Origin: a virus
Taxonomy: Duplodnaviria > Heunggongvirae > Uroviricota > Caudoviricetes
Reading direction: 5' to 3' (one strand)
IMG/VR virus record: IMGVR_UViG_2778261458_000001
Coordinates: 1-18,705 of that record
Length of the DNA: 18,705 nucleotides
The position numbers were made by a program, and so were the translations under genes. Shown here in pieces: positions 3,887 to 5,284 of the stretch (its first letter is position 1; each line of letters opens with the position of its first letter). Under the pieces are notes generated by a model that worked only from the letters and a program-made list of their open reading frames with translations, was not told where the DNA came from and did no database searches.

Positions 3887-4936
3887 TCAAACGATTAAAT
3901 CCTGAACTTCCCTGACTGTCTGTTCAAAACGTCCTGTCTCCAGCTCAACACCAATCGCACAACGCCCCAGTGCCATCGCCGCTTTTACCGTTGAACCTGA
4001 ACCCATAAAAAAATCTGCAACCAGGTCTCCCGGACGACTGCTCGCGTTGATTATCTGCTGCAGCATTTCTGCCGGTTTTTCGCACGGATGTTTCCCTGGA
4101 TAGTACTGCACCGGTTTATGCGTCCAGACATCGGTGTACGGAACCTGCGCCGTCACACCGAAATACCGCCGCAAATTTTTATATTCACTCAGCAGTTCCG
4201 TATACTGCCGGTTCAGCTCACTGTATGTGCTGACCAGCTGGTGGTGTGGCTTTTCCAGTTCCCCGCGCTGATGTTTTTCTGCCGCAACACGCGCAAACAA
4301 CGCCTGCAATTTGTTGTAATCACCCTCGTTCGGTAACTGCCACTGACTGGTACCAAACCAGTGCGAAGCCATGTTTTTCTTTCCGGTGGCTTCCGCTATC
4401 TGTTTTGACGTTATTCCCAGTGATTTACGCGCATCACGAAAGTAAGAAATCAGCGGGGCCATGACGTGCTGTTTTAGCTCGCGCCCCTGTGCCACATAGC
4501 CATCATCTTTCGGGCGATACGGTCCCTGATAATGTTCTGCAAACAGAATGCGCTCTGTTGCCGGAAAATACGCCCGCAGACTTTCCTTATTGCACCCGTT
4601 CCAGCGTCCGGACGGCTTCGCCCAGATAATGTGGTTCAGCACATTAAAGCGCTCACGCATCATGATTTCGGTGTCAGATGCCAGGCGATGACCACAGAAC
4701 AGGTAAAGACTTCCGGCAGGCTTCAGTACCCGCCAGAACTGCGCCAGACACTGGTCCAGCCATTTCAGGTAATCATCGTCGCCCTCCCACTGGTTATCCC
4801 AGCCCTCGGGCTTCACTTTAAAGTATGGCGGGTCTGTGACTATCAGATCGACAGAGTTTTCCGGTAAGGTCTGGATAAATTCCAGGCAATCAGCGTTGAT
4901 TAACTCACAACTGGATATTTTTACAGTATTAATCAT
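3887..4936 (-). CDS. DNA methyltransferase, beta-class (N6-adenine or N4-cytosine), orphan
   Basis: 349 aa; DPPY (motif IV) near the N-terminus in IVTDPPYF and FxGxG (motif I) near the C-terminus in DFFMGSGST, i.e. beta-class order with a central target-recognition region. No nuclease gene adjacent. Confidence 0.85.
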   Translation of the reverse strand: MINTVKISSCELINADCLEFIQTLPENSVDLIVTDPPYFKVKPEGWDNQWEGDDDYLKWLDQCLAQFWRVLKPAGSLYLFCGHRLASDTEIMMRERFNVLNHIIWAKPSGRWNGCNKESLRAYFPATERILFAEHYQGPYRPKDDGYVAQGRELKQHVMAPLISYFRDARKSLGITSKQIAEATGKKNMASHWFGTSQWQLPNEGDYNKLQALFARVAAEKHQRGELEKPHHQLVSTYSELNRQYTELLSEYKNLRRYFGVTAQVPYTDVWTHKPVQYYPGKHPCEKPAEMLQQIINASSRPGDLVADFFMGSGSTVKAAMALGRCAIGVELETGRFEQTVREVQDLIV

Positions 4937-5086
4937 AGATCAATAAGCACTTCTCTGATAGGCTCATACCGCTTTTGCGCAAAGCAGATGGGCCTGAGGT
5001 TTGCTTGTGACCCCAACGCATGAGCAGATGGCTGGCAGGTGCCGCTAACACCCACCAGCCGCCCATTACCACAAATTAAAAAACCT

Positions 5087-5284
5087 TCACTGAGGAAGGC
5101 GTCTGTAACAACCGAACTGATAATCTGCCAGACCCGCCATAACAAGCTGAGTCAGTATTAACTGGCAGCGTTCGCGTGAAAGGTAAGTATTCTGCGCAAT
5201 TTCCCCGACGGTCGCCGGTTCGGTGACGCTTAATTCATTAAACACCACTCTGGCGGTTTCGGTCATATCCTGCTGTTTTAGCAT
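5087..5284 (-). CDS. Small winged-helix DNA-binding protein (65 aa)
   Basis: Internal ATG at 5284 of ORF 5087-5407, preceded by a purine-rich stretch (AAGGGA); HTH-like segment TVGEIAQNTYLSRERCQLILTQLVMAGL. The ORF-track N-terminal extension overlaps the terminator and looks non-coding. Confidence 0.45.
   Translation of the reverse strand: MLKQQDMTETARVVFNELSVTEPATVGEIAQNTYLSRERCQLILTQLVMAGLADYQFGCYRRLPQ

Follow-up and report, generated by a model that had tools for sequence, protein, structure and literature searches.

A conserved structured RNA leader precedes an M.EcoGII-family methyltransferase gene in lambdoid prophages of Escherichia coli

RESULTS

Genes and features at the locus

The stretch of DNA analyzed here (the window) is the 18,705-nucleotide (nt) virus record IMGVR_UViG_2778261458_000001 of IMG/VR. 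By its sequence it is an E. coli lambdoid prophage, and the 2.7 kb around the locus of interest is 99.9% identical to a prophage of the enterotoxigenic E. coli (ETEC) strain H10407 and of other E. coli strains. All of the relevant genes lie on the minus strand. In the order of transcription, the locus consists of a DUF968/HNH gene, RusA, a Q-like gene, a terminator, an open reading frame (ORF) of 65 amino acids (aa), a 150-nt gap, a DNA methyltransferase gene, three tRNA genes, another terminator, and the holin and endolysin genes. A preliminary description of the window had recorded an orphan beta-class methyltransferase and a small helix-turn-helix gene at the head of the late operon, and had read part of the gap as a further short frame. 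We find that the gap holds a conserved structured RNA leader directly 5' of the methyltransferase AUG (positions 4937-5074, minus strand, 138 nt; the covariance model match spans 4934-5074), recognized by its conservation, its covariation, and matches to a covariance model and with nhmmer. This folded RNA between the two genes is a new feature, probably the actual regulatory one, that the preliminary description missed. We are highly confident that it is a functional structured element.

Conservation and distribution of the leader

The short frame does exist mechanically: it begins at a TTG, encodes 70 aa (4933-5145), and ends with a TGA that lies over the ATG of the methyltransferase gene. 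The resulting ATGA overlap arises because the second methyltransferase codon begins with A. As a gene, the frame was rejected, since it has no Pfam or PHROG match, its homologues contain 1-nt insertions and deletions, and the conservation of the region shows no 3-base periodicity. The 1-nt indels mean that the spacer is noncoding.

When the window is compared with SfV, mEp460, Morganella, and Providencia, the spacer is better conserved than either of the genes that flank it. Nucleotide identity to the Morganella copy is 76% over the leader, as against 68.5% over the methyltransferase gene and 63.6% over the small ORF. Searches with nhmmer found the leader directly before the methyltransferase in 62 of 84 loci, from Enterobacterales and some Vibrio. 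The covariance model recovered 61 distinct copies in Enterobacterales and Vibrio with scores of 45 to 161 bits, each of which lies on the coding strand and has its end at a start codon, along with weaker matches in Gilliamella and Xenorhabdus. Across these 61 distinct loci, the start codon that follows the leader is the methyltransferase's own or, in four Vibrio loci, that of a Com-like ORF. A degenerate DNA pattern of the leader is present in at least 120 viral contigs. A methyltransferase homologue follows the pattern in all 80 viral loci examined, and 78 of these homologues start 50 to 54 nt after the end of the pattern. Of 5426 complete E. coli genomes, 2708 gave a match to the leader, a single genome having as many as 8 copies, and the leader is also present in the Q-to-stx region of Stx2 phages.

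No RNA feature is annotated at the leader among the E. coli records listed. Rfam 15 returned no match to it at E <= 10 for the window and none at E <= 1 for six relatives, and literature searches for the leader itself, for its sequence, and for small RNAs of prophages located here yielded nothing relevant. Searches of the main text of PMC5778455, which deals with M.EcoGII, brought up no reference to an upstream small gene, an RNA leader, or a LexA-like box.

At two of the related loci, the leader and methyltransferase gene stand behind genes of other kinds. In L049 (82-2145) they follow a 687-aa ORF that reads like a methyltransferase or restriction enzyme, and in L026 (1383-2282) a 299-aa ORF that reads like a serine peptidase, both judged by eye rather than by a family scan. 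Given these unrelated upstream genes, the leader and methyltransferase appear to travel as a unit outside lambdoid late operons.

Fold, covariation, and strand of the leader

In the leader, pairing is preserved in two sets of helices that partly exclude each other. The first set (P1d, P2, P3', P4, and P5) is the pairing scheme that was given to the covariance model. It has 85.8% of its cells paired, compared with at most 42% in slid controls, and 22 of its pairs show compensatory changes, a number reached by 0 of 500 shuffles. The best single pair is 54-81 in P3', which occurs as CG (21), UA (15), AU (9), and UG (4). The second set is made up of P1p, P3'', and ext, with P2 and P4 in common with the first. 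Here 90.4% of the cells are paired (at most 39% in slid controls), and compensatory changes are found at 77-146, 78-145, 79-144, and 89-129. The second set is the RNAalifold consensus of the sense strand and the minimum free energy fold in 8 of 9 representatives, and, with 45 nt of coding sequence attached, it dominates the ensemble in 37 to 43 of 57 sequences. The alignment used was built with the covariance model; it replaced a plain MAFFT alignment, in which the hairpin interior was misaligned and from which RNAalifold gave just 14 pairs.

In the second set, of which P3'' is the long-range helix, CGCUU..UGAUC at -17 to -5 is predicted to pair with GGUCAC-AAGCG, and this pairing is conserved. 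There is no recognizable Shine-Dalgarno sequence before the methyltransferase. A leaderless mRNA was considered as the explanation for this start and rejected, because inspection found no -10 element at the right distance.

Noncanonical pairs carry information on which strand is folded. In the helices of the second set, G.U is far more frequent than A.C, as expected for the mRNA strand. In P3', by contrast, A.C makes up 142 of the 156 non-Watson-Crick cells, and the helix is 97% paired when read as antisense RNA versus 74% as sense; P4 likewise leans to the antisense strand. The RNAalifold consensus scores -85.0 for the antisense strand, with helices P3'*, P2*, and an extended P4*, and -80.4 for the sense strand. 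The pattern in P3' could reflect either a second, weaker state of the mRNA or a cis-antisense RNA.

The methyltransferase

The methyltransferase gene (3887-4936, minus strand) encodes a protein of 349 aa that we assign with high confidence to the M.EcoGII family of beta-class N6-adenine DNA methyltransferases, on the basis of its match to PF01555 and its identity to M.EcoGII. The Pfam domain N6_N4_Mtase (PF01555) covers residues 29-340 with an E value of 2.1e-44 and 152.5 bits (cutoff, 26.7). The DPPY motif lies at residues 35-38 and FMGSG at 310-314. This is the order of beta-class enzymes, in which the catalytic DPPY comes first, towards the N terminus, and is followed by the target-recognition domain and then by the AdoMet-binding FxGxG. 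The solved relatives of the protein, which align with it in two segments, are beta-class enzymes. M.EcoGII is also 349 aa long, and the two proteins are identical at 317 of 350 positions (~91%); this is a lower bound, because the reference sequence, from Table S1 of PMC11551740, was machine-read from a PDF with a few reading errors. Position 179 is Gln in the window enzyme, as it is in M.EcoGII. Close relatives occur in phage 1720a-02, phiP27, and Stx2 phages, and the enzyme of 1720a-02, to which identity is 89.7%, is named as very similar to M.EcoGII in PMC5778455.

The enzyme family is therefore one that has already been characterized, and the enzyme itself is not new. According to PMC5778455, M.EcoGII is prophage-borne, methylates adenine in any context, shows toxicity under constitutive expression, and stays silent in lysogens. 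In REBASE-based work (PMC6602927), homologues at ~93% similarity appear as "nonspecific" and as inactive in culture, and SUPREM, an engineered ancestral relative of M.EcoGII, is likewise non-site-specific according to the SUPREM paper. Since the family methylates adenine in any context, no single target site or motif is to be expected. The view of the enzyme as an orphan without an adjacent nuclease, as first described, agrees with our results. Its neighbors are the tRNAs, the holin and endolysin genes, the small ORF, and the Q-like gene, and neither the methyltransferase nor the small gene has a nuclease gene beside it, be it in the window or in annotated phage relatives; a gene with an HNH domain (DUF968) lies two genes upstream, beyond Q and RusA. 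The anti-restriction role suggested for the enzyme is also the accepted view for the M.EcoGII family.

The small winged-helix gene

The 65-aa protein is encoded at 5087-5284 (minus strand), and its ORF begins 124 nt past the tR'-like terminator described below. It belongs to PHROG 331 (E 1.4e-37), a family of unknown function whose members appear in RefSeq as "hypothetical" or "TrmB family", and it has 334 close homologues in Enterobacterales. An AlphaFold2 model (predicted local distance difference test score, 90.8) consists of three helices (residues 4-16, 26-33, and 37-49) and a beta hairpin (53-56 and 59-62). Foldseek matched this model at E values of ~1e-3 to winged-helix domains of MarR/IclR regulators, to N-terminal domains of O-methyltransferases, and to SelB. 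The sole Pfam match is to the TrmB winged helix and is subthreshold (E 0.0026); Pfam gives no HTH_3 match, and the protein contains no zinc ribbon of the kind found in Mu Com (PF10122). A longer form of 106 aa, starting from a GTG at 5407, was rejected, as this start lies inside the terminator and the extension is unconserved in Morganella and Providencia.

In a hidden Markov model search of 85 related loci, the small gene was present upstream of the methyltransferase in 44. SfV (orf47/orf48), mEp460, and Morganella and Providencia phages have it in this position, behind differing Q genes. At least 14 loci have the same downstream leader and methyltransferase behind unrelated upstream genes, and because these loci lack the small gene we regard it as optional for the cassette. 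The preliminary description was accurate in placing a winged-helix protein after a tR'-like terminator and in noting that no restriction enzyme accompanies it. Its comparison with a controller-protein arrangement, on the other hand, has to be given up: the winged helix is of the MarR/IclR/TrmB type, not of the Xre type, and the small gene is dispensable in those 14 or more loci. We reject an identity as a controller (C) protein on the grounds of both fold and context.

A LexA-box-like palindrome at the start of the coding region

Codons 4-9 of the methyltransferase contain a palindrome that resembles a LexA box (4911-4926, no strand assigned). It reads CTGT-AAAAATAT-CCAG, one mismatch from CTGT-N8-ACAG. 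A perfect CTGT-N8-ACAG with an AT-rich center occupies codons 4-9 in ~38 of 57 distinct enteric loci (among L002-L063). Codons 2-9 are unusually conserved at synonymous sites, with values of 0.93 to 1.00 at codons 4, 7, 8, and 9 compared with ~0.55 deeper in the gene. The box may act as a roadblock or as the operator of an antisense promoter.

Related loci with Com-like genes and a second leader

In six Vibrio loci (L067, 2328-2440; L068, 2341-2470; L069; L079; and also L075 and L081), a zinc-ribbon ORF of 36 to 53 aa lies directly before the methyltransferase. In some Vibrio, the leader comes first, then this Mu Com-like ORF, and then the methyltransferase. A scan for Com covering four of the six zinc-ribbon ORFs scored the one in L067 at 24.6 bits, above the Pfam cutoff of 22.9, and gave subthreshold matches for L068 and L075. 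A CC-AA-GAG motif that resembles the published Com binding motif stands between the Vibrio zinc-ribbon ORF and the enzyme gene, and an Aeromonas phage homologue has been annotated with a Com-like regulator by another laboratory. In phage Mu, Com opens a translation-inhibition structure within the mRNA of mom, and Com-like genes precede nonspecific methyltransferases in FluMu (PMC6483171, PMC3299994). The enteric winged-helix protein could not be shown to be homologous to the Vibrio ORFs that occupy a comparable place (hhalign probability, 4%).

In other loci from Vibrio, Aliivibrio, and Psychromonas (L071-L074, L076, L078, L080, L082, and L084), the methyltransferase is preceded at ~2330-2490 by a second conserved leader, unrelated to the first. 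Its motif is GAUGCCUUGAGUACCUGAGACCCA .. UGGAGAGGAAGCA .. GC hairpin .. GUAUUCAAGGCUCU, a LexA-like box (ACTGTATAAAAACACAGT) lies upstream of it, and it has no Rfam match. The 5' half of this second leader also occurs upstream of the main element in L067, L068, and L079.

Surrounding features of the late operon

Upstream, the Q-like late antiterminator gene (DUF1133/Phage_antitermQ; 5516-6070, minus strand) was identified by matches to Pfam DUF1133 (E 1.6e-103), to Phage_antitermQ (E 3.5e-07), and to PHROG 753, "anti-termination protein Q-like" (E 2.9e-77); in RefSeq, it is a DUF1133 family protein. It is followed by a tR'-like intrinsic terminator, GAAAGAACCCGC-UUUAU-GCGGGUUUUUUU (5408-5436, minus strand), which lies 3' of the presumed PR' region. 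The hairpin has a dG of -22.4 kcal/mol and a z score of -5.67, with 0 of 200 shuffles folding as well, and SfV has an annotated terminator at the equivalent place. A terminator scan also picked up a weak hairpin and U run, GCCUUC-CUCAGU-GAAGGU-UUUUUUAAUUU (5074-5100, minus strand; dG -7.3, z -1.4), within which the small ORF's stop codon falls. At the equivalent place, terminators are stronger in relatives, for example, L016, L018, and L068, and the hairpin is possibly a second terminator ahead of the leader. From the small ORF as far as the tRNAs, the sequence shares 80 to 91% identity with phiP27 and many Stx2 phages in their Q-to-stx region. This finding, together with the place of the locus behind Q and tR', agrees with its earlier assignment to the head of the late operon.

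Downstream of the methyltransferase are three co-oriented tRNA genes (3588-3837, minus strand), detected by ARAGORN and by the Rfam tRNA model (72.5, 26.4, and 70.1 bits). They have a CAU anticodon (Ile in RefSeq), Arg-UCG, and Arg-UCU and are arranged as in the ileZ-argN-argO trio of Stx phages. The middle one (Arg, UCG; 3678-3754, minus strand) scores under the Rfam gathering score, has acceptor stem mismatches, and is unannotated in the RefSeq record of H10407; it may be degenerate. An intrinsic terminator lies 3' of the cluster (3555-3574, minus strand; terminator scan, dG -14.6, z -5.1). An ORF at 3341-3565 (minus strand) has a match to a TerB-like family of phages, "tellurite resistance" (PHROG 632 and 9865), that is confined to the C-terminal part of the family. 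RefSeq treats the ORF as a pseudogene without its N terminus, and in some E. coli relatives a TerB family gene is found intact, here or close by.

Two stretches on either side of tR' deserve mention. Between the Q gene and tR', positions 5409-5482 (minus strand) match weakly to isrK, a small RNA of Salmonella prophages (21.6 bits, below the gathering score of 50). This stretch is probably a short terminated PR' transcript, and StxS of Stx phages is reportedly a comparable one. The untranslated stretch from tR' to the start of the small ORF (5285-5400, minus strand) is well conserved among the window, SfV, and mEp460, and blocks within it, CTTGCTG and CAGAGTTA among them, do not vary even in Morganella and Providencia. 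A scan flagged no sigma-70-like promoter in 5285-5400.

DISCUSSION

The enzyme encoded at this locus is of the M.EcoGII family, its gene lies behind Q and tR', and the leader that precedes it is conserved, contains covarying helices, and is strictly linked to a start codon. We lean, if modestly, towards reading the locus as a late anti-restriction cassette of lambdoid prophages in which a toxic enzyme is gated at several layers, and our confidence in the specific gating mechanism is moderate to low. The cassette would comprise an optional winged-helix gene, a structured RNA leader of ~135 nt, and an M.EcoGII-type methyltransferase that acts in any context. Because the enzyme is toxic to the host, it would be held off by more than one layer of control. 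Transcription would reach the gene only when Q-modified polymerase passes tR' and then a second, weaker terminator. Since the gene has no Shine-Dalgarno sequence and -17 to -5 is paired in the dominant predicted fold, translation would be off by default. An opening event would then be needed, brought about perhaps by a switch to an alternative fold, by a factor acting in trans (the winged-helix protein or the enzyme itself), or by a complementary RNA. A further layer, SOS control, may come from the LexA-like operator in codons 4-9. The logic would be that of the com-mom operon of Mu, with a different RNA and a different small protein.

Several points weigh against this model. The masking of the start region is a nearest-neighbor prediction, and the mean unpaired probability of -20 to -5 is 0.43. 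Much of the covariation between Enterobacteriaceae and Morganellaceae is a single clade-level event. The covarying helix P3' clashes with the sense fold and fits the opposite strand, so that a picture with a single RNA may be incomplete. The LexA-like box of the window has a mismatch, and its location inside a coding region is unusual. The factors that may open the start site are so far candidates alone.

Other explanations of the conserved block have to be considered alongside the late-cassette model. A kept DNA-level function without any role for RNA, such as a recombination linker joining phage modules or a promoter or operator, is suggested by the mosaic nature of lambdoid phages, in which the cassette is found behind different Q genes, and by the LexA-like operator at the edge of the spacer. 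We consider it very improbable, because the compensatory changes in several helices exceed those of all shuffles and slid controls, the G.U pairs are concentrated on one strand per helix, the register to the start codon is fixed out to Vibrio, and no sigma-70-like promoter was found in the region. Among RNA-level explanations, the broad proposal that the ~135-nt block represents an RNA switch of a new class, gating a toxic adenine methyltransferase that acts genome-wide, either as a riboswitch or protein-responsive two-state leader or as a sense/antisense pair under SOS control, is tentative, and we would not expect it to hold in that form. We are equally hesitant about a related reading, in which the block gives rise to two RNAs, the mRNA leader and a cis-antisense RNA of ~110 to 135 nt that pairs with it and controls the translation or stability of the methyltransferase message, after the manner of type I toxin-antitoxin pairs, the alternative fold being that of the antisense RNA. 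The strand bias of P3', which covaries and yet has almost all of its noncanonical cells as A.C, points in this direction, as does the same tendency in P4. The antisense consensus fold is as good as the sense fold, and conservation reaches ~27 nt into the coding region, as if a promoter were there. However, sense-fold partners also constrain the P3' columns and could yield part of the A.C bias. In Vibrio L068, the sole promoter-like site in 600 nt is antisense and inside the element (TTGTCA-18-TAGACT), but such a match is at chance level (1 found, 1.1 expected). For the enteric loci there is no convincing promoter; the scan flagged none, and candidates chosen by eye match 6 to 8 of 12 positions and have an unconserved -10. 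Just UUU or UUUU follows the last helix of the antisense RNA, with no canonical terminator.

The two mutually exclusive helix sets, both of which keep their pairing potential, would also be expected of a ligand-sensing riboswitch, in which the three-way junction of P1d, P2, and P3' binds a compound such as S-adenosylmethionine (SAM) or S-adenosylhomocysteine (SAH) and frees the start, while the masking fold forms without ligand. The regulated gene encodes a heavy consumer of SAM, the junction and loop nucleotides are highly conserved from E. coli to Vibrio, and a single change in AUGGGC in L010 is met by compensation in each of the two candidate partners. Even so, a riboswitch seems to us quite unlikely. 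In 8 of 9 representatives, the masking fold is the more stable one, by 1 to 13 kcal/mol, the junction fold prevails in the ensemble of 7 to 8 of 57 sequences, the A.C bias of P3' speaks against its formation in the sense RNA, Rfam 15 contains no SAM, SAH, or other riboswitch family that matches, and a ligand cannot be inferred from the sequence. The idea that the winged-helix protein is a dedicated activator, an analogue of Mu Com that binds the leader RNA or nearby DNA and opens the start, we regard as doubtful. The small gene does lie directly upstream of the leader in about half of the related loci, across Q types and genera, and winged-helix domains can bind RNA, SelB-SECIS being among the fold matches; those matches, though, are to generic winged helices at E values of ~1e-3. 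The corresponding cassette of Vibrio relatives has a Com-like gene, but there the Com-like ORF sits downstream of the leader and is therefore no substitute for the winged-helix protein. Before the Vibrio leaders there are small ORFs in a comparable place whose third helix has a similar motif, although their homology to the enteric protein is not demonstrable, and the loci in which a near-identical leader and methyltransferase follow unrelated upstream genes argue against a dedicated activator at this position.

M.EcoGII is in wide use as a reagent for the footprinting of chromatin and RNA, and the silencing of the native gene has so far gone undescribed. The late-cassette model offers a testable account of how phages time the production of a lethal anti-restriction enzyme. 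Related methyltransferase genes elsewhere sit behind a Com-like protein, LexA-box-like sequences, or the second leader, and these arrangements may be convergent, all of them serving tight control. With a presence in about half of the complete E. coli genomes, the leader would rank among the most common unannotated structured RNAs of this species, and it may serve as a tight OFF module for toxic genes.

The cassette invites comparison with several known systems. C proteins have an Xre-type helix-turn-helix, bind C-boxes, and time the production of a restriction enzyme. As in those systems, a small protein of a DNA-binding type is encoded just upstream of a unit that contains a methyltransferase; unlike them, the window has a winged helix without an HTH_3 match, no nuclease, and a small gene that is optional. 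Type I toxin-antitoxin loci such as symE/symR, tisB/istR, and hok/sok share with the cassette a toxic product and a long structured leader with long-range pairing over the start, which for the cassette is a prediction, and the cassette shows hints of a complementary RNA and of LexA control, as these loci do. Here, however, the "toxin" would be a 349-aa enzyme with a role in phage biology, the antisense transcript is hypothetical, and the leader has no sequence similarity to any antitoxin RNA in Rfam.

The closest counterpart of the enzyme is M.EcoGII/M.EcoGI of the E. coli O104:H4 strain C227-11, as described by Murray et al. in 2018 (PMC5778455), with which it shares its length, its motif order, Gln 179, about nine-tenths of its residues, and its location on a prophage. 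The window carries a different allele, in a prophage of the non-Stx, ETEC type, and the activity of its enzyme is predicted. In its organization, the cassette can be compared with the com-mom operon of Mu and the com-methyltransferase operons of FluMu and Pnme1 (PMC6483171, PMC3299994). These encode a toxic, late, sequence-independent adenine-modifying anti-restriction enzyme, with a small gene directly upstream and, in Mu, a start region that is masked by mRNA structure, as is predicted for the window. The parts differ. The small protein of the window is a winged helix and not a zinc ribbon, its RNA is a multihelix element of ~135 nt where Mu has a short hairpin and a translation-inhibition stem, and its beta-class enzyme is unrelated to Mom and to the alpha-class enzymes of FluMu. 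The two kinds of system nevertheless meet within the methyltransferase family itself, as its Vibrio and Aeromonas members have a Com-like zinc-ribbon gene.

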